Part shown: positions 53,421-63,800 of the stretch, piece by piece
Layout: the number at the start of each line of letters is the position of its first letter
Position numbering within the stretch: the stretch's first letter is position 1
Assembly: GCF_000027125.1 (NCBI RefSeq)
Contig: NC_017626.1
Strand: one strand, 5' to 3'
DNA length: 64,000 nt
Source of the DNA: Escherichia coli 042
GTDB lineage: Bacteria > Pseudomonadota > Gammaproteobacteria > Enterobacterales > Enterobacteriaceae
Program-made: the position numbers and the translations under genes
The notes under the pieces: model-generated
What the model was told of the DNA's origin: nothing
Databases searched by the model: none
The model's input: the letters and a program-made list of their open reading frames with translations, nothing else

Positions 53421-53651
53421 TACATCCCATTGAAAAATTTCTCGGTATAGAATATACCAATGCTGAGGAGTTCCCTCTTACATTTCTAAAGGATAATTAT
53501 CATGGGGCCTTAAACTTGGTCCAAAACCGATTGCTAAATCGACAGGAAAACCGGATCAACGCCGACGAGATAATAAAGATACTCCTGGCAACACTCCGGG
53601 ACTAAAACCGAGTAAGTCTACAGGTAAGTAAATAAAAAGGATATAAATAAG
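53421..53651 (+). repeat. ~230 bp dispersed repeat, copy 2 (small ORF frameshifted)
   Basis: Aligns to 26141-26372; an extra base disrupts the 42-codon ORF that is intact in copy 1. Confidence 0.8.
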
Positions 53652-53837
53652 CATTTATACCCTGACTACATATCCAGTCTACTGAAGGTGTTTCTGCAGC
53701 CAGATGCTCGTTCCTTCTATATCATACGCCTTTGCTCCATACCCTTTCGCAAGCAAAGACTCTGGTAAATACTCGTCATATTTATCCAGATGCTTATCAG
53801 GAACAACTGCAGCAAGCTCAAACTCTGATGGTAAACC

Positions 53838-54064
53838 TGACAATAACAGTAAGCGTCAACGGAGCACCGTATTGACGCTTATTTATTGGTGAGTACTACG
53901 TTCCATGGCAGGAGTTCATCAACTCGGTTGGAAGGCCATTCCGGCAGTACGCTCAGGATATGGCGCAGATACGCTTCCGGATCGATACCGTTCAGACGGC
54001 AGGTGCCGATCAGCCCGTACAACAGTGCTCCACGCTCGCCGCCGTGATCGCTGCCAAAGAACAT
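53838..54064 (-). pseudogene. IS66-family tnpC 3' fragment with terminal repeat
   Basis: Minus-strand [36 protein letters not shown] is the IS66 TnpC C-terminus; element end GTAAGCG at ~53838; near-identical copy at 55968-56181. Confidence 0.75.
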
Positions 54065-54127
54065 AAAGATGGTATGACCTTTATATACTCACTATAGCAT
54101 TGGTGGGATATTCCAGAGGAGGTCATT

Positions 54128-55261
54128 ATGCATTCGGAAAATATTGCAGCTTACATCGGGCTGGATGTACATAAAGAAACGTTGGCGGTTGCTATTGCTG
54201 CACCTGAACGGCTTGGCGAAGTTCGTTATTATGGTACGATTAACAACGAAGCCCAGGCTGTACGTCGATTATTTCAGAAATTGCAGGGACTTTACGGAAA
54301 CATTCTTTCCTGCTATGAGGCTGGCCCCTGTGGTTTTGGGCTATATCATCAACTCACAGCGATGAATATAAAATGCCAGGTTATTGCCCCTTCCCGGATA
54401 CCAAAATCACCGACAGACAGAATCAAAAATGATCATCGGGACGCAATTTCTCTTGCCAGGTTACTGCGGGCTGGTGAACTTACCCCTGTCTGGATCCCTG
54501 ACCTGACTCATGAAGCTATGCGGGATCTAATCAGAGCCCGTGCAGCAGCTAAACGAGACAGCAGAGTTGCCCGACAGCGAATTCTGAGCATGCTATTGCG
54601 AACAGACAAACGTTATGCAGGAAAGCACTGGACCGGCAAACATCGAACCTGGTTAGCCAATCAATCATTTAGTCAGCCATCTCAACAGATTGCTTTTCAA
54701 CACTATTGTCAGAGTCTGGAGCAGATTGAAGATCGCATACTTCAACTCGACCAGGAAATATCCCGCCTGTTACCTGAGTGGTCTCTGTGCAATCTGGTCT
54801 GCCAGTTACAGGCCCTTAAAGGTGTTGGTCAGCTAACCGCAATAACCCTGGTTGCTGAACTGGGTGATTTTTCACGATTTTCCAGTCCCAAACAACTCAT
54901 GGCTTTTCTGGGACTGGTTCCAGGGGAATATTCCAGTGGAAACAGCATTCGTCCCAGGGGAATAACAAAAGTTGGAAACAGCGAACTGAGACGTCTGCTT
55001 TACGAAGCCGCCTGGTCTTATCGTACACCTGCAAAAGTTGGTGCATGGCTTATATATTACCGACCGGATTCTGTAACACAATATTCCAAAGATATTGCAT
55101 GGAAAGCTCAACAACGATTGTGTTCTCGTTACCGAAGTCTGACAGCAAAAGGGAAAAAATCACAAGTAGCCATTACGGCGGTGGCTCGTGAGTTGACTGG
55201 ATTTATGTGGGATATTGCACTTGCTGCCCAATCATCATTCAGTCAGCAGAAGCAAAATTAA
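54128..55261 (+). CDS. IS110-family transposase, copy 1
   Basis: 377 aa; N-terminal IGLDVHKETLAVAI is typical of IS110-type transposases; near-identical to 56245-57378; element appears 3'-truncated just after the stop codon. Confidence 0.8.
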   Translation: MHSENIAAYIGLDVHKETLAVAIAAPERLGEVRYYGTINNEAQAVRRLFQKLQGLYGNILSCYEAGPCGFGLYHQLTAMNIKCQVIAPSRIPKSPTDRIKNDHRDAISLARLLRAGELTPVWIPDLTHEAMRDLIRARAAAKRDSRVARQRILSMLLRTDKRYAGKHWTGKHRTWLANQSFSQPSQQIAFQHYCQSLEQIEDRILQLDQEISRLLPEWSLCNLVCQLQALKGVGQLTAITLVAELGDFSRFSSPKQLMAFLGLVPGEYSSGNSIRPRGITKVGNSELRRLLYEAAWSYRTPAKVGAWLIYYRPDSVTQYSKDIAWKAQQRLCSRYRSLTAKGKKSQVAITAVARELTGFMWDIALAAQSSFSQQKQN

Positions 55262-55810
55262 ACCTATCGTGGAGAACAGGGGCGAACTTGTAATAATTTA
55301 CTGAAGAGACAATTTTATGCTGACCGCCCAAATCAAAAGTGGGTAACAGATGTCACAGAGTTTAAGGTCGATGGCAGGAAGCTCTATTTATCACCAATCA
55401 TGGACCTGTATAATGGAGAAATAGTCTCATATAACCTTACTGAGCGCCCATTAGCATCAATGGTAAAGAGCATGCTATTAGATGCGGTAGAACAACTCAA
55501 TAAAGACGATAAGCCCTTGTTGCATAGTGATCAGGGGTGGCAATATCAGATGCCTCGTTGGCAACGTTGGTTGAGTGATAATGGCATAACACAAAGCATG
55601 TCCCGACGTGGTAACTGCTTAGATAATGCAGCAATGGAAAGCTTTTTTAGTACTTTAAAATAAGAATGTTACTACCTAAATAAATACAATAAGTTACATC
55701 ATCTAAAGCAAGATATAATTGATTACATTGAATACTACAATCACCATCGCATTAAAGAGAAACTCGATGGCATGAGTCCGGTTCAATATCGACTTAAACA
55801 TTTTTCATAG
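55262..55810 (+). pseudogene. IS3-family orfB (integrase core) fragment
   Basis: Translation ...KWVTDVTEFK...LYLSPIMDLYNGEIVSYNL...HSDQGWQYQ...GNCLDNAAMESFF..., with an in-frame stop before the final YYNHHRIKEKLDGMSPVQYR block. Confidence 0.7.
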
Positions 55811-55967
55811 GATGTCCAAGATTTGGGGCGCAGATCATTTGAAAAGGTGGGCACCTACGTTACCAATACTGGCTTAATGGCTACATACGGCAGTCGGTTT
55901 ACGCTTACCTCCGTTAACGCTTACCTTTAATCTGCTGAATTTCGAATTGTTCAGGAGTAATAGTCGT

Positions 55968-56181
55968 AAGCGTCAACGGAGCACCGTATTGACGCTTATT
56001 TATTAGTGAGTACTACGTTCCATGGCAGGAGTTCGTCAACTCGGTTGGAAGGCCATTCCGGCAGTACGCTCAGGATATGGCGCAGATACGCTTCCGGATC
56101 GATACCATTCAACCGGCAGGTGCCGATCAGCCCGTACAACAGTGCACCACGCTCGCCGCCGTGATCGCTACCGAAGAACAC
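55968..56181 (-). pseudogene. IS66 tnpC 3' fragment, separated from the gene body by the IS110 insert
   Basis: [36 protein letters not shown], continuing the tnpC body at 57631-59056. Confidence 0.75.
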
Positions 56182-56244
56182 GTAGATGATATGACCTTTA
56201 TATACTCACTATAGCATTGGTGGGATATTCCAGAGGAGGTCATC

Positions 56245-57378
56245 ATGCATTCGGAAAATATTGCGGCTTACGTCGGGCTGGATGTGCATAAAGAAACGTT
56301 GGCGGTTGCTATTGCTGCACCTGAACGGCTTGGCGAAGTTCGTTATTATGGTACGATTAACAACGAAGCCCAGGCTGTACGTCGATTATTTCAGAAATTG
56401 CAGGGACTTTACGGAAACATTCTTTCCTGCTATGAGGCTGGCCCCTGTGGTTTTGGGCTATATCATCAACTCACAGCGATGAATATAAAATGCCAGGTTA
56501 TTGCCCCTTCCCGCATACCAAAATCACCGACAGACAGAATCAAAAATGATCATCGGGACGCAATTTCTCTCGCCAGGTTACTGCGGGCTGGAGAACTTAC
56601 CCCTGTCTGGATCCCTGACCTGACTCATGAAGCTATGCGGGATCTAATCAGAGCCCGTGCAGCAGCTAAACGAGACAGCAGAGTTGCCCGACAGCGAATT
56701 CTGAGCATGCTATTGCGAACAGACAAACATTATGCAGGAAAGCACTGGACAGGAAAACATCGAACCTGGTTAGCTAATCAATCATTTAGTCAGCCATCTC
56801 AACAGATTGCTTTTCAACACTATTGTCAGAGTCTGGAGCAGATTGAAGATCGCATACTTCAACTCGACCAGGAAATATCTCGCCTGTTACCTGAGTGGTC
56901 TCTGTGCAATCTGGTCTGCCAGTTGCAGGCTCTTAAAGGTGTTGGTCAGCTAATTGCAATAACTCTGGTTGCTGAACTGGGTGATTTTTCGCGATTTTCC
57001 AATCCCAAACAGCTCATGGCTTTTCTGGGACTGGTGCCAGGTGAATATTCCAGTGGAAACAGTATTCGTCCCAGAGGAATAACAAAAGTTGGAAACAGCG
57101 AACTGAGACGTCTGCTTTACGAAGCCGCCTGGTCTTATCGTACACCTGCAAAAGTTGGGGCATGGCTTATATATTACCGACCGGACTCTGTAACACAATA
57201 TTCCAAAGATATTGCATGGAAAGCTCAACAACGATTGTGTTCTCGTTACCGAAGTCTGACAGCAAAAGGGAAAAAATCACAAGTAGCCATTACGGCGGTG
57301 GCTCGTGAGTTGACTGGATTTATGTGGGATATTGCACTTGCTGCCCAATCATCATTCAGTCAGCAGAAGCAAAATTAA
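56245..57378 (+). CDS. IS110-family transposase, copy 2
   Basis: 377 aa, differs from copy 1 at a handful of residues; insert flanked by short inverted TATGACCTTT repeats. Confidence 0.85.
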   Translation: MHSENIAAYVGLDVHKETLAVAIAAPERLGEVRYYGTINNEAQAVRRLFQKLQGLYGNILSCYEAGPCGFGLYHQLTAMNIKCQVIAPSRIPKSPTDRIKNDHRDAISLARLLRAGELTPVWIPDLTHEAMRDLIRARAAAKRDSRVARQRILSMLLRTDKHYAGKHWTGKHRTWLANQSFSQPSQQIAFQHYCQSLEQIEDRILQLDQEISRLLPEWSLCNLVCQLQALKGVGQLIAITLVAELGDFSRFSNPKQLMAFLGLVPGEYSSGNSIRPRGITKVGNSELRRLLYEAAWSYRTPAKVGAWLIYYRPDSVTQYSKDIAWKAQQRLCSRYRSLTAKGKKSQVAITAVARELTGFMWDIALAAQSSFSQQKQN

Positions 57379-57630
57379 ACCCTGAAGCAGTCAGACACGG
57401 AATGAGTGATCCTCGTAAAAGAATTCAGGGAAGCCAGAATGCGCTAATACCTGCACGTAGAAAGAGGCCAGCTCACTGCGTAAATCGTCATGGGGCTAAA
57501 ATCCCCGAATAAGAGTTTGTAAAATCCAAGATACAGTCTGACTGTTTCAGGTTCTTTAATCCGCGATATAACGAAGCTCCCGGAGCTGCGTAAGGTCTTT
57601 TTGGGCTTAATATTTGACAAAGGTCATAAG

Positions 57631-59056
57631 AATTTTTCTTTCCGAGACAGACTGCACGAAGCGCTCTTTCCGCTGTGTTATTGTCCGCCTCCGCCAGACC
57701 GTCATCACAGAAGTTGCACAACGCAACCCAGTGCTTCCTGATATACCGGAACGCATCTCTCAGACGGCATTTTTTCGATAACGTGTGTTCTTTCTCCTGC
57801 ATCAGCTTATACAGGGAAGTCAGTAGCGGTTTACTCTGCATTTGCCTGACCGCCAGGCGTTCAGACACCGGCAACCCGCGTATTTCGTGCTCAATGGCGT
57901 ACAGTTCGCCGATTAGTTTCAGTGCTTCTTCCGCCGTCGCGCTTTTGGTACTGATATATACATCGTGGATTTTGCGCCGCGCATGAGCCCAGCATCCTGC
58001 TTCCGTCAACGCGCCGCCTTCACGTTCGGCACTGAACAGCCGATCGTAACCTGCGAACGCATCTGCCTGCAGGATACCCCGGAAGGGACGAAGGTGTTGC
58101 TCCGGATGTTTACCCTGATGGTCCGGTGAGTAGGCGAACCAGACCGCCGGAGGTTCTGGCGAACCGGCATTTCGGTCATCCCGGACATACGTCCAGATAT
58201 ATCCTGTTTTCGCCTTCTTCCTGCCCGGTGCCAGTACTTTTACTGGTGTGTCATCAGTGTGAACCTTGCGGGTGTTCATCACATAACTGTACAGGGCATC
58301 ATTCAGCGGCGTCATTAACTGGCAGCACGCATCAACCCAGTTGGAGAGTAAGGCACGGCTCAGTTCGACACCCTGGCGGGCAAAGATTTCACTCTGACGA
58401 TACAGTGGCAGGTGTTCGCAGTATTTTCCCGTTAACACGCGGGCAAGTAACCCCGGGCCCGCGATACCACGCTCTATCGGACGGGATGGTGCCGGTGCTT
58501 CAACGATGCAGTCACATTTTGTACAGGCTTTTTTTACCCGTTCTGTGCGGATCACTTTCAGGGCGCTGCTCACCAGTTCCAGTTGTTCTGCGCTGACTTC
58601 CCCCAGATAATCCAGCTCACCGCCACACTCCGGGCAACAGCTTTCTTCAGGCTCCAGGCGGTATATTTCACGGGGGAGATGTGCCGGTAACGGACGACGA
58701 TGGCGCGACTGTCGCAACTGGCGGGGAACCAGCGGGTCATCCTCACGCCCACTGTAACGATCGCTTTCCTGCTCGCGTTGTTTCAGCAGGGCTTCAGCCT
58801 GTTCAACCTCACGACGCAGTTTTTCAGAACGGGTTCCGAACAGCATCCGGCGCAGTTTTTCTATCTGAGCCCGCAGATGCTCTATTTCCCGTTCATCTTC
58901 TTCGATCTTTTCTTCGGCACGTGCCAGTGCAGAGCGCAGGAAGGCCTCCGTCTCTTCAACCAGACTCAGTTGCTGGTCTTTCTGACGGAGGGCTTCAGCC
59001 TGCTCAGAGAGCAGCCTTTCCAGCTCAGCGATGCGAATGAGGTATTTCTGACTCAT
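57631..59056 (-). pseudogene. tnpC: IS66 tnpC, main body (disrupted near 3' end)
   Basis: IS66 TnpC-like sequence up to ...AERALRAVCLGKKN, then reads into IS110-derived sequence; the listed ORF end at 57488 is read-through. Confidence 0.8.
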
Positions 59057-59086
59057 GGCCGTTTTTATAATGCGGTCAGGAGTTTT

Positions 59087-59437
59087 TTACAACATTGTCA
59101 GTGCGTTAAGGCGGGATGTTTTTGGCTGACGCCAGTCCAGCTTATCGAGGAGCATTGCCAGTTGCGAGCGGGTAATGGATATCTTACCGTCACGCACCGC
59201 AGGCCAGATAAACTGACCTTCCTCAAGGCGTTTGGTGAACAGGCACAGACCATCAGCATCAGCCCACAGGATTTTAATCGTGTCTCCCCGTCGGCCACGG
59301 AAGATAAACAGGTGACCGGAGAAGGGGTTATCATCCAGCACATGCTGTATCTGCTCCCCCAGACCGTTGAAGGATTTACGCATATCAGTAACGCCGGCAA
59401 CGAGCCAGATACGGGTACCTGATGGGAGTGAAATCAT
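59087..59437 (-). CDS. tnpB: IS66 TnpB
   Basis: 116 aa; position between tnpA and tnpC; 4-bp overlap with tnpA. Confidence 0.8.
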   Translation of the reverse strand: MISLPSGTRIWLVAGVTDMRKSFNGLGEQIQHVLDDNPFSGHLFIFRGRRGDTIKILWADADGLCLFTKRLEEGQFIWPAVRDGKISITRSQLAMLLDKLDWRQPKTSRLNALTML

Positions 59438-59871
59438 CGTCCCCTCCCGGTCAGCTCACGGATCAACACCGTGAGCAGCTCTGGTGAAGGATTTTCCAGC
59501 ATCATTTTACCGTAATGGAATTCCACATGGCAGGAAGCTGCACAAGCAACTGATAATGCCTCCGGAGCAGGAGCATCTGTAGCACAGCGCGGGGTGTCGA
59601 TAAGTTCCACTGGAACCAGAGTCGGAGAGGCCGGAAAAGATTGTGATACTGTAGGGCCTACAATAGTTGGAGGCATTCTACGAGAAATACGTCCTTCTCT
59701 TTGCCAGAGGCGTAGCCATTTAAAAATCAGGTTGTTATCAACGCCATGTTCCCGGGCCAGTTGTGCAACATTGGCATTTGGTTTCGAAGCCAGTTCAACC
59801 ATATGAAGTTTAAATTCATTAGAAAATATCCGGCGGGTTCCGGAGCGCCAGTCTGTAGGTTTATCCATCAA
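59434..59871 (-). CDS. tnpA: IS66 TnpA
   Basis: 145 aa; HTH-like N-terminus; first ORF of the IS66 three-gene set. Confidence 0.75.
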   Translation of the reverse strand: MMDKPTDWRSGTRRIFSNEFKLHMVELASKPNANVAQLAREHGVDNNLIFKWLRLWQREGRISRRMPPTIVGPTVSQSFPASPTLVPVELIDTPRCATDAPAPEALSVACAASCHVEFHYGKMMLENPSPELLTVLIRELTGRGR

Positions 59872-59952
59872 TAGAACTCCGTCTAATTTAGAAGGAGCTC
59901 TAATTTAGTCTGCAAGGAGCAGGTGTTACAGACGGCATTGGCTTTACGCTTA

Positions 59953-60408
59953 CCCATAGAGGCGGATATAAGGGGAATGCCGGCAGAGCAGCGGCTTGCT
60001 GAACGTCAGCGAAAAACGAAACCGCTGTTGAAATCCCTGGAAAGCTGGTTGCGTGAAAAGATGAAGACCCTGTCGCGACACTCAGAGTTGGCGAAGGCGT
60101 TCGCGTACGCACTTAACCAGTGGCCGGCACTGACGTACTATGCGAACGATGGCTGGGTGGAAATCGACAACGACATCGCTGAAAATGCCCTGCGGGCGGT
60201 CAGTCTGGGTCGTAAAAACTTCCTGTTCTTCGGCTCTGACCATGGTGGTGAGCGGGGAGCGCTACTGTACAGCCTGATCGGGACGTGCAAACTGAATGAC
60301 GTGGATCCAGAAAGCTACCTTCGCCATGTGCTTGGCGTCATAGCAGACTGGCCGGTCAACCGGGTCAGCGAACTGCTTCCGTGGCGCATAGCACTGCCAG
60401 CTGAATAA
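59953..60408 (+). pseudogene. 3' fragment of a second IS66 tnpC (5' part missing)
   Basis: + strand ...[52 protein letters not shown]...; begins at the junction with the minus-oriented IS66; CGCTTAC end near 60455. Confidence 0.7.
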
Positions 60409-60455
60409 CACATCCCCGTCAATACGGCCCTCGCTGTACGCTTACCGCTTATCCA

Positions 60456-60689
60456 ACGGACATCCGCAAAGTGATCTATACGACGAATGCCATCGAGTCG
60501 CTAAACAGCGTGATCCGCCATGCGATCAAAAAGCGTAAAGTGTTCCCGACAGACGACTCGGTGAAAAAAGTGGTGTGGCTGGCAATCCAGTCTGCGTCCC
60601 AGAAATGGACGATGCCGTTGAAGGACTGGCGAATGGCAATGAGCCGCTTTATTATCGAGTTCGGTGACCGCCTGGACGGTCACTTCTGA
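60456..60689 (+). pseudogene. IS256-family transposase C-terminal fragment
   Basis: TTNAIESLNSVIRHAIKKRKVFPTDDSVKKVVWLAIQSASQKWTMPLKDWRMAMSRFIIEFGDRL resembles an IS256-type transposase C-terminus; no upstream part. Confidence 0.6.
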
Positions 60690-60839
60690 GAAAGGCATTT
60701 ACACAGAATCTTAAACAGGCTCGCGCCAGTCGGCAAAACTAGTTGACGTCTAATACACTCCCCCTTACCGAAGACCTTCAGTTTTATATTTTAAGAGTCT
60801 CTGAGAAAGGCTGCCTTCCGGCAGCCCTTTACCCCCACA

Positions 60840-63800
60840 TCAGAACATATACCGGAAATTCGCGTTTACCGCATTATCCACGTTATATTTACCAAAGGCT
60901 GACTTCTCAAACTCCAGACCAAAGCGCATATTGTCCTTTATCTGCGCATTCATACCAACATTAAACAGCATCCGGCTGTCCTTCTCTCCTTTTATCCGTT
61001 TCTCCCCGGACGCATCACGCAGTACGGTCTCTCCATTATTCAGCAGGTCAAACTGCCAGCTGGTTCCGGCACGGGCCGTCACACTCCAGTCCTTACCACT
61101 GAAGGTCTTGCCCAGTTCAACCCCTGTTCTTCCAACCAGCGGACTGAAGTCCCTGTTCTTCATGCTCAGGTCCATATCACCGTCTTTCCAGCGGAATGTT
61201 TTCCCGGACACGGCGCCGTAAACCAGTTCAGCCTGCGGCTCAATGAACGTGTCCTCTGTCAGGTGATAGCGGTAACCCGTTTCAGCACCGGCATACCAGG
61301 AATGGGTGTTGTAGTGTTTCGTTCCCAGGCTAGCAAAGTTACCTGTGTAATCATTGTCATGGTGAATATATTTACCAATCAAATCGATATAGGCACCGGA
61401 CTCAAACAATGCTGAAGCATACAGACCGCCCCCCACCGATTTCGTCTTTCCGCTGAATGCATGGCTGTCTGCACTGCTGTCGGTATAGGTCATCGTGACA
61501 CCGGTAAACAGGTCCACACCGTCCAGTTCATGTTTTTTGTCAAAGCCGACCTGAACATGGGTGTAATTATCACTGTAACCACCGTCTGCAGAACCGGCAC
61601 CACTCATGATGCGCGCCCAGGCACCGGCATCACCGTTTGTGTCACGCAGGTCACCCATACGTTTGTTCAGATTGTTAACTTCCGTCATGAAGTTTTTATA
61701 CCCGGCATTCATGAAACTGTCAGCCTTCGCGGCAGCGGCTTTATCAGCCTCCGCTTTAAAACCATCCAGTATCCACTTCGTATTGCCACCACTGGTATCA
61801 ACATGCAGGGTTGGGGTCACCCGACTGAAACCTGTCACCCGGGTGCCGGCCTTAAACATCTCTGCTGAAGTTCCCGCCGGTGCCGTGACCAGAGGAATAT
61901 TCAGGGCCTGTCCCTGAGCAGGATTATTCATAAAGCTGACGTTCAGGCTGTTATCTGAACCAGTGGCTTTTTCAGTCACATTAATTTTATCGGCATTTTT
62001 CAGGTCCGTACGCAAAACAAAATCACTGCCTGTTGCATCCAGTTTATTCACCGTCAGGGTACGGAATGTACGGTCTCCTTCAGAACTAATACGGCTGTTT
62101 CTGACGGTAAGACTGTGGATGGCAGAGTCCCCACCCAGAGTCCACAGTGCATTATGCATACTGACATCAGCCCTGCCACCGGTTATGGCACCATTGAATG
62201 CTGCGTTATAGCCCTCAAGAAGACTGCCGGCAAACGCCGATGCAGCCGTTTCCGCAGAAGCCAGTTCTGCCGGCGTGTCAGACCCGATGGTAACTGTTGA
62301 TGCCGCAGAGGCATGAATATCACCGGAAGCATGTGCTCCACGGGTAATTTCCAGTGCTGCGTTATCGCCGGTCAGGTCATATCCGTCCGTCAGATATACA
62401 GCAGGGGCATACTGATTAGCCGTATCTTTAACCGGTGTACCGCTCAGGGTGATTTTGCCGTTCTTACCGGCCTGAATATGCCCGTCGCTGAAAAGACCGT
62501 TCAGTGCTGTAAGATGACCGCCATCATGCACTGTCAGTGAACTGCCGGCAAAAGCACCCGGGGCTGTCAACAGGACGTCCGGAGAGGTGATGCTGACGGC
62601 ACTGTCATAAGCGTCAATCCCCCCGGTGAACCTGCTGCCGATATCCAGGGCTGAGTTATGGTTCAGCGTAATATTCCCTTCATACTGGCTCCTGTCATTC
62701 ACGGTGTCCGGGACAGAGGTACCTTCCTCCGGAATGACATAATTTCCTGTTCCGTCATTTTTATCCACAAATGCCCTGTCACTTCCCAGTGTGATATGGC
62801 TGTTATCCGACTTAATGTCACTGTTCAGCGAGGCGTTACGTGAAAGATGGAAGTCAGCGTCTTTCAGCGACAGTGTTTTCATTGTAAACTGACGGTTTTC
62901 CCAGTCTTTCTGGTTCAGGCTGACCGGTGCACTGCCACTGATGGAGGCATGGATAACCGGATGTCCCTGGAATATCAGGGTGCCACTGTCCTGACTCAGG
63001 GTACCTTCCGGCAGGTTCACGCTACCATCAAAGATGACCTTTCTTCCCCCCGGCACCTGTGGAATGGCGACATCCATATTCCCGGTCAGCTGACCATGAA
63101 AGATAACGGGTTGTTTTGCCCGCCCGGCCAGGATCCTATCTTTTACTGTCTGAACTGCTTTGTTTTTGTCCATGCCAACAAACTCCCACTGAGCCGGATC
63201 ATTCAGGCTGTTCCCCCACAGAGTGTTACCATAGCTGGCAGATTTCAGAATATAGAAGCGGGTCTGGCTGTTGAGTATCATGCTGTACAGGTTTCCTGGA
63301 GTGCCGGTACCACCAAAGGGGGATATATTTCCAATCGTCGGTTCACTGACATTTGTATCCTGAGCCTTAAGATCCAGTAAAAGCTGGGATTTTTGCTGTG
63401 CATTATTTGTAATCACCGCCCCGTAATCAGCAGCCTGCAGTCGGGTGAAGGTAACGGCATTACCATTAAGGTCAAGCTTACCTCCCCGGTATCCCCATGA
63501 AATGTTATCCGGATTGACCTGACGGGCATCCCCGAGCACCACGGTCGGACGTCCGCTGGCGAGGTTCACTGAACTGAAGGCCTGGATATTACCTGCAGTG
63601 TCTGCCTGCTGGTTAAGTACAACGATACCGTCTCCCGTTTTCAGTCCTCCCGGGTTTACACCTGTTCCGTTTATGGTCAGGGTTCCTTCCCCCAGCTTAT
63701 GCAAGTTGTCACCGGCAACGCCGTTGACCTTCCAGGTTACATTCGTCCCCTTGTCAGTAATAATGCCGGCACCCGTCCATGTTTTTCCGGATTCAGCAGA

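Follow-up and report, generated by a model that had tools for sequence, protein, structure and literature searches.

Nested IS110- and IS66-family elements beside pic in Escherichia coli 042: probable site-specific insertion of ISEc45 guided by a predicted bridge/seekRNA

We analysed a 64,000-nucleotide (nt) stretch of DNA from Escherichia coli 042 (contig NC_017626.1 of assembly GCF_000027125.1; hereafter the window), in which positions 53838 to 60455 hold two copies of the IS110-family element ISEc45 amid pieces of IS66-family elements. The locus is a real, though ordinary, pile-up of insertion sequences (IS) in an E. coli virulence island, an IS graveyard adjoining the autotransporter gene pic of enteroaggregative-type E. 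coli. The best explanation, in which we place considerable confidence, is recurrent site-specific insertion of ISEc45 guided by a predicted bridge/seekRNA. ISEc45 would target the DNA for the conserved TnpC motif G-(K/R)-K-N-(Y/F/W)-(V/M/L)-F of the IS66 family, and two different IS66-family elements would each have been struck at that exact site by two different ISEc45 lineages. The apparent duplication at the locus would arise because ISEc45 inserts site-specifically.

Two ISEc45 lineages at one site in two IS66-family elements

Self-comparison of the region, proposed in a first-pass annotation of the window, returned one strong direct repeat, between 53849-55264 and 55966-57381 (1416 bp, 38 differences, 97.3% identity). 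A repeat of this length and identity (1.4 kb, 97%) vastly exceeds what chance can produce. Both repeat copies open with the IS66-type terminal repeat GTAAGCGTCAACGG, followed by ~60 terminal tnpC codons on the minus strand (PF13817) and then by the gene for a 377-amino-acid IS110-family transposase on the plus strand, which bears out the annotation's statement that the same IS66 tnpC 3′ fragment precedes both IS110 genes. The copies are co-oriented and lie 2117 bp apart. In an identical locus, RefSeq labels the elements ISEc43 (IS66 family) and ISEc45 (IS110 family).

Both ISEc45 transposases matched PF01548 (1e-15) and PF02371 (1e-24), with a score of 278.9 bits against NF033542, 'IS110 family RNA-guided transposase' (cut-off of 140). 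Both copies contain GLVPGEYSSG, in agreement with the C-terminal G--P----SG motif that carries the catalytic serine (motif as defined in PMC11187229), and the four amino acid differences between the two transposases all lie outside it. According to a published matrix, the ISEc45 transposase is 15-25% identical to other ISfinder entries (PMC11187229). The left end of the element is 61 nt long including the AG dinucleotide, and the non-coding region downstream of the gene spans 252 nt. ISEc45 is thus an IS110-family element with an IS1111-type layout.

Copy 2, which we call type A, is complete and occupies 56184-57632 on the plus strand (1447 bp plus the junction dinucleotide). It begins with AG at 56184-56185 and the left end ATGATATGACC, encodes the transposase at 56245-57378, and closes with the non-coding 3′ region (57379-57630), the right end ...TTGACAAAGGTCATAAG and AA at 57631-57632. 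Its host, ISEc43, extends from 55966 to 59953 on the minus strand and has the make-up of an IS66-family element: tnpA (59434-59871), tnpB (59087-59437) and tnpC lie between terminal inverted repeats of the GTAAGCG type, located at 55966 and 59953 (PF01527, PF05717, and PF03050 with PF13007, PF13005 and PF13817). ISEc45 interrupts tnpC 57 codons before its end, so that the C-terminal piece lies at 55996-56183 and the body resumes at 57633 (PF03050; 57633-59056). The host therefore retains all three genes and both repeats of the family, but its tnpC is split and no 8-bp target duplication is present at the locus. The first-pass annotation had described inverted TATGACCTTT flanking copy 2. This sequence is present at 56190-56199, with its counterpart AAAGGTCATA at 57619-57628 (10 bp); however, it is the subterminal repeat of ISEc45 itself and not flanking DNA.

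Copy 1, or type B, occupies 54067-55264 on the plus strand and lies against a right-end fragment of an IS66-family element (53849-54066, minus strand), which carries the terminal repeat GTAAGCG... and a tnpC open reading frame (ORF) at 53879-54064 holding the last ~60 codons (PF13817), and which ends at the ISEc45 target ...AAAGAACATAA. The copy opens with AG at 54067-54068 and the left end ATGGTATGACC, has its subterminal repeat at 54073-54082, and encodes an intact transposase at 54128-55261. As the annotation had noticed, it stops just past the stop codon: the match ends at 55264, 3 bp beyond it, and nothing is left of the 3′ non-coding region or the right end. Copy 1 is fused there to the interior of an IS3-family orfB fragment (55265-55837, plus strand; PF00665 rve core, NF033516), which lacks its 5′ part, contains an in-frame stop at 55664-55666, and ends in the right terminus ...GCAGATCA. 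A later deletion would have made this fusion, removing the guide RNA and the right end. Experiments on IS1111-type elements showed that circle formation and transposition depend on the downstream non-coding region (PMC11187229). By this precedent, copy 1, lacking the RNA and the right end, should be unable to mobilise itself, though its transposase gene is intact.

The uninterrupted copy-2 site was found in FDAARGOS_403 (O104:H4-type), which carries this locus, including copy 1 and the IS3 fragment, with an intact tnpC in ISEc43. Over 11.7 kb, a clean 1447-bp gap and five single-nucleotide polymorphisms (SNPs), none of them inside ISEc43, separate this genome from the window. The empty site reads GAAGAACACGTAATTTTTCTTTCC, and the occupied site in the window reads ...ACACGT-AG-ATGATATGACCTTT......AAAGGTCATAAG-AA-TTTTTC... 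(hyphens mark the junctions here and below). Copy 2 is thus a genuine insertion into an IS66 tnpC, as the annotation had proposed.

The two copies belong to two distinct circulating lineages. They differ at 11 of 218 positions in the IS66 part and at 27 of 1198 in the ISEc45 part. Copy 2 is only 1 nt of 1447 away from an ISEc45 in Nissle 1917, sited in another IS66 remnant, and likewise 1 nt from one that lies within yqhC in a strain of serotype O18:H1. For copy 1, a complete element near the cob genes of strain TB4328 differs at 1 nt of 1198. Each copy is thus matched to within 1 nt at a different locus of a different strain. The target in ISEc43 is GAACACGT-AA-TTTTTC for type A (...CACGT-AA-TTTTT with left end ATGATATGACC), and that in the IS66 relative is GAACATAA-AG-TTTTTC for type B (...CATAA-AG-TTTTT with left end ATGGTATGACC).

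These data bear on the annotation's inference of a segmental duplication with later rearrangement, in which a block of 'IS66 end + IS110' was duplicated locally and one copy then truncated by IS3. On this view, the O104:H4-type allele would have lost ISEc45 from copy 2 by precise excision. In its favour are the two co-oriented copies 2117 bp apart, both with the IS66 fragment and the IS110 gene, and a region where other rearrangements are clear and IS66 elements have no target duplications. However, the copies differ by 2.7%, compared with ~5 SNPs per 11.7 kb (~0.04%) between whole loci of different strains. A recent local duplication is also at odds with 27 differences between the two ISEc45 parts, as opposed to one between each and copies in other strains at unrelated loci. 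Furthermore, the IS66 parts differ at the target bases (ATAA vs ACGT) in the way that two separate circulating junction types do, and an allele with copy 1 but an empty copy-2 site exists. As for precise loss, excision of the IS1111-type element ISEc11 with regeneration of the uninterrupted target was not detected (PMC11187229). We therefore consider this inference very improbable: the shared upstream IS66 fragment follows from the same target having been struck twice by a site-specific element, and not from local duplication.

A second alternative places the copy-2 event elsewhere, so that its presence or absence here reflects recombination or gene conversion between ISEc43 copies, or transposition of an ISEc43::ISEc45 composite, with no fresh insertion at this locus. 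IS66-family sequences are indeed abundant (a median of six places per genome), FDAARGOS_403 has a further ISEc45-in-IS66 copy elsewhere (H27), and ISEc43 at the locus is without a target duplication. Recombination between ISEc45 copies is also demonstrable. Four genomes (MLI121, for example) have a single ISEc45 copy and a locus 2119 bp shorter, and the single-copy loci L002 and L004 are chimeras with a copy-1 left part and a copy-2 right part. This is what homologous recombination between the copies should produce, and in such strains it would have removed the intervening 2117 bp. Against an exchange between ISEc43 copies, ISEc43 has one and the same sequence in the occupied and the empty allele, without co-converted SNPs, and the composite in Nissle 1917 differs in its IS66 part. 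The same site-specific insertion would in any case be needed earlier, and only the place of the event would change. We regard this alternative as unlikely, although somewhat less so than a local duplication.

Mis-assembly classically arises at repeats of this length (1.4 kb), and the annotation had named a single IS66/IS110 copy assembled as two as the outcome that would overturn its reading. This can be practically dismissed. The 7.2 kb around the locus are 100% identical in seven independent complete genomes (FORC_069, FORC_043, FORC_029, NCCP15648, NCCP 13905, NCCP 13983 and NCTC9082), at least 80% of the 7.2-kb arrangement occurs at one place in 17 genomes, and additional genomes carry variants of the locus with extra IS insertions. 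Moreover, the two copies have 38 fixed differences and different right-hand neighbours. The locus varies among closely related enteroaggregative E. coli and O104:H4-type strains by IS gain or loss and by recombination between IS copies.

A predicted bridge/seekRNA in the 3′ non-coding region

Downstream of the copy-2 transposase gene, the 252 nt of non-coding sequence have a minimum-energy fold with a z-score of -2.7 against shuffled sequences and an 11x11 internal loop, and their long closing helix joins 57381-57396 to 57536-57551. In a consensus fold of 11 divergent sequences, 96% of the cells were paired, 27 cells were double changes and seven pairs showed compensatory changes. None of 500 shuffles matched the observed pairing or covariation, and the paired fraction dropped to 36-60% in shifted registers. 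A covariance model built from this alignment (R1) gave one match in the window, at 57389-57533 on the plus strand (124.6 bits), which we designate the predicted RNA core. It had no match in copy 1, and it also recovered the RNA in the 3′ regions of distant relatives.

The target loop is bounded by CCUC/GAGG and an inner covarying hairpin. At the end of the 5′ side of the loop, AAGAAUU (57419-57425) pairs with plus-strand AATTTTT with one G.T wobble. At the start of the 3′ side, CACGUAG (57454-57460) is equal to the plus-strand left flank plus AG, and would pair with the minus strand opposite CACGT+AG. A single internal loop would thus read the junction dinucleotide and right flank on the plus strand with one segment, and the left flank and dinucleotide on the minus strand with the other; the two guides overlap at the junction dinucleotide. 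An exact k-mer search for guides yielded 6-7-mers only, and these became convincing only after they had been placed on the fold and compared across relatives.

This comparison showed that the left-flank guide and its target vary together at the same alignment columns. The pairs are CACGUAG with CACGT+AG in the window, CAUAUAG with CATAA+AG in L006 (the TB4328 element), CAGGUAG with GAGGT+AG in L016, and CAGCCAG with (G/C)AGCC+AG in L009, L012, L013, L015 and L017. Each of the four guide variants thus follows its own target variant, with agreement at 6-7 of 7 positions. Once G.T/G.U wobbles are allowed, AAGAAUU, the second guide, can pair with AATTCTT, AGTTCTT or A(A/G)TTTTT.

A multiloop around the hairpin 57492-57506 would pair likewise with the joined ends of the excised element. 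AUCGUC (57484-57489) could pair with G+ATGAT at the left end, one of the pairs being a wobble, and AUAAGAG (57509-57515) is equal to the right end ATAAG plus AG. The donor-side pairing, which is shorter and less secure than that of the target loop, extends up to 9 nt in L009 and L026. The fold and the complementarities suggest that the target is most likely chosen by a bridge/seekRNA from the 3′ non-coding region, which would be transcribed, bound by the transposase and used to steer the insertion. A scan of 56100-57800 for promoters and terminators found nothing; a candidate circle-junction promoter, TTGACA-N17-TATGAC, was recognised by eye only, and its -10 element TATGAC is weak.

The predicted RNA was compared with published systems. 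IS1111-type RNAs have the top-strand match 5′ of the bottom-strand match, matches that overlap in the target, and donor guides in a multiloop (PMC11187229, PMC11208160). The predicted layout of the ISEc45 RNA agrees with this, less certainly so for the donor guides, and supports the reading of its loop segments as guides. ISEc45 shares further features with ISEc11, ISKpn4, ISPa11 and IS5075 (PMC11187229, PMC11208160): the DEDD/RuvC-like domain and the C-terminal GL-P----SG domain, a short left end, subterminal inverted repeats with short terminal extensions, a long downstream non-coding region, orientation-specific insertion at one sequence, two loop segments that match opposite strands and overlap at the junction, and TTGACA close to the right end, at the place expected for a circle-junction promoter. 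It differs in its longer transposase, in a target that is a protein-coding motif of another IS, and in an RNA that is so far a prediction.

IS4321 and IS5075, which are IS1111-type and target the ends of another transposon, likewise prefer a conserved sequence of another mobile element and are nested at one position in one orientation. The host of ISEc45 is instead IS66 and the site lies within a transposase gene (in distant relatives, by the prediction of their guides, in the IS66 terminal repeat GTAAGCG), and the guides are unrelated. The bridge RNA of IS621 (IS110 group) similarly has left and right guides for target and donor, each containing the junction dinucleotide, CT on the strand opposite the transposase gene. 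However, the IS621 RNA is located in the left end upstream of the gene with the guide order reversed, and IS621 is without long subterminal repeats and mainly targets sequences like repetitive extragenic palindromes.

Specificity for tnpC, and a possible clade of IS66 parasites

Among 5426 E. coli genomes, the 3′ region of ISEc45 was found at a coverage of at least 80% in 617 (~920 places in all), and the stretch that joins it to the IS66 flank in 594, in keeping with site specificity. Relatives were sought in one genome per species, and 28 loci were found. Eight of them split an IS66-family tnpC at the same codons, ...G(R/K)KN-(W/Y)LF.... These eight come from Nitrosomonas, Limnoglobus, a Sphingomonadales metagenome-assembled genome (MAG), a Rhodobacteraceae MAG, Novosphingobium, Trabulsiella, Ralstonia and Sphingomonas, and their transposases are 56-72% identical. 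Their element ends are conserved as AG-ATG(A/G)(T/G)ATGACC... and ...TTGACAA(A/T)GGTCATAAG. A further relative, in a Planctomycetota MAG (L015, 1005-2468), is inserted in a non-IS66 gene (...GIAPKNWLTPFGV...) at the same 12 nt, CAGCCAGTTCTT, which argues that nucleotides are recognised and not IS66 as such. We also considered a duplicated CT/AG dinucleotide at every insertion and rejected it, as this is true for AG targets only.

A type-A ISEc45 was also found outside IS66, in the chromosomal yqhC of E. coli O18:H1 CFSAN067215 (L036:1306-2869), at GGCATCAT-A?-TTCTCTTTTCC. This copy has a 117-bp tandem duplication at its right end, joining the true end CATAAG-AG to an internal AATAAG-AG. The internal sequence is the DNA that encodes the proposed donor guide, and it looks as if it was used as a pseudo-end. 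A similar tandem duplication is present at the right end of L020.

Several observations weigh against the site-specific, RNA-guided reading. The E. coli genomes counted above do not represent separate events. At the type-A target, AA stands in place of the element's AG; the left junction is always AG and the right one has the target's bases, so that every AA target seen (the window, L012 and L016) has AG on the left and AA on the right. The yqhC insertion fits the left-flank guide at only four of seven positions, and the specificity is thus not absolute. The right-flank guide is almost invariant, so the covariation comes from the left-flank guide only, and most relatives share the AGCC target. 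The donor pairing spans only 5-7 bp, wobbles included, and some relatives (L017 and L029) leave its register unclear. An Rfam search of 53500-60900 returned no family for the predicted RNA. The transposase, at 377 amino acids, is longer than the 330-350 given for typical IS1111 members (PMC11187229). L004 has a type-A guide beside a type-B flank, which its chimeric origin accounts for without proving it. The empty and occupied alleles fit a gain of copy 2 in the window's lineage or its precise loss in the O104:H4 lineage, and copy 1 may stem from the co-divergence of one ancient IS66::ISEc45 composite.

Distant relatives in Belnapia, Paeniroseomonas and Roseicella (L018-L020 and L027), together with an ISSso6-family copy (L007:345-1746), have the same RNA architecture, matched by R1 at 38-49 bits, with other guides. 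In L018-L020, the guides CAGUAAG and GGACGCUUU predict (C)AGTA-AG-CGTCC as the target. The junctions agree with this prediction, reading GTA-AG-...ATGTCCGC and ...GGACATCAG-AG-CG(T/G), with individual cases GGGTA-AG-..., CTGTA-AG-... and ...CATCAG-AG-CG(T/G). The ISSso6-family copy in L007 abuts an ISEc43 end at GCGTCAACGG (the ISEc43 end minus GTAA), and the ISSso6-type stretch of RNA plus IS66 occurs at a coverage of at least 80% in 23 E. coli genomes.

Taken together, these relatives raise the possibility, which we put forward tentatively and at slightly less than even chances, that ISEc45 belongs to a widespread clade of RNA-guided IS110-family elements specialised on parasitising IS66-family elements. 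One branch, in Gamma-, Beta- and Alphaproteobacteria and Planctomycetota, may direct its guide against the codons of the TnpC motif G(R/K)KN(W/Y)LF. A more distant branch, in Belnapia/Paeniroseomonas (L018-L020), may have the IS66 terminal repeat GTAAGCG as its target, as its guides predict, and ISSso6 probably belongs to this branch as well. If such a specialisation is true, one mobile-element family would exploit the conserved sequences of another by means of a programmable RNA. The IS66 transposase would be disabled while the guest stayed mobilisable inside an IS66 element keeping both ends, guide and host sequence would co-evolve, and natural guide-target pairs would be supplied for bridge-recombinase engineering.

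For the genome itself, the locus, IS debris beside pic, is of little consequence. As a natural instance of RNA-guided insertion it would nevertheless be a clean one: the empty and occupied alleles differ by the element only, two guide variants match two target variants, and a copy without its guide RNA appears frozen in place. ISEc45 and ISEc43 are already catalogued, and nested IS, the bridge/seekRNAs of IS110/IS1111 elements and the targeting of transposon ends by IS1111-type elements are known. A search of the literature on ISEc45, on IS66 in connection with bridge RNA and on IS1111 in connection with IS66 found no description of the target of ISEc45 or of a clade specialised on IS66; ISEc45 itself occurs there only as a sequence in supplementary data (PMC11187229). 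Relative to this searchable literature, a guide RNA and an IS66-tnpC target for ISEc45 and its relatives appear to be new.

Neighbouring IS remnants and genes

Next to the IS3 fragment lie the terminal ~70 bp of another IS66-family element, ISEc8/IS682-like (55839-55908, plus strand), recognised by a repeat-family match and ending in the inverted repeat ...ACGCTTAC. They are ~97% identical to the matches listed, several of which lie under annotated IS66 tnpC genes. We had considered 55829-55908 as the far end of the copy-1 IS66 element and rejected it, since it is the tnpC-proximal end of this different, co-oriented element. An AfaR small RNA at 55868-55908 was likewise rejected: the Rfam match was partial and below threshold (27.8 vs 100 bits), and the sequence is an IS66-type terminal repeat. 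The AfaR model apparently contains a part that is similar to an IS66-type end. A 57-bp spacer (55909-55965) with a further ACGCTTAC remnant separates this piece from ISEc43.

The 5′-truncated IS66 and the IS256 fragment reported in the first pass were recovered by profile searches. The former is a 3′ fragment of a third IS66-family element (59954-60446, plus strand) that holds 150 C-terminal tnpC codons, has ~67% DNA identity to ISEc43, and ends in ...ACGCTTAC at 60445. The latter is a C-terminal fragment of an IS256-family transposase (60471-60689, plus strand; PF00872, NF033543). An 8-bp target duplication was sought at the IS66 pieces and none was found: the ISEc43 flanks are TAATAGTC and CCATAGAG, and the copy-1 IS66 fragment has CAATAACA opposite a non-matching octamer. 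The lack of target duplications indicates that the flanks were reshuffled, and the IS66 pieces form a patchwork.

Upstream, the copy-1 IS66 fragment adjoins a partial 'ATP-dependent helicase' pseudogene of RefSeq (window 53679-53849, minus strand). In L004, the corresponding place upstream of the IS66 fragment has a comparable partial gene, annotated as 'ATP-binding protein'. Downstream, the RefSeq annotation of an identical locus places the ORF of the Pic autotransporter at window 60840-63935 (minus strand). Two plus-strand ORFs, 62658-62843 (61 codons) and 62847-63380 (177 codons), run antisense within pic; by their size and arrangement they are candidates for the ShET1 enterotoxin genes set1B and set1A. 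Finally, a 28-nt inverted repeat was observed at 51188-51215 and 51570-51597, its arms being 82% complementary with 354 nt between them. The stretch inside it contains a frameshifted transposase pseudogene of RefSeq (window about 51245-51525), and it may be a small IS remnant or an element like a miniature inverted-repeat transposable element.

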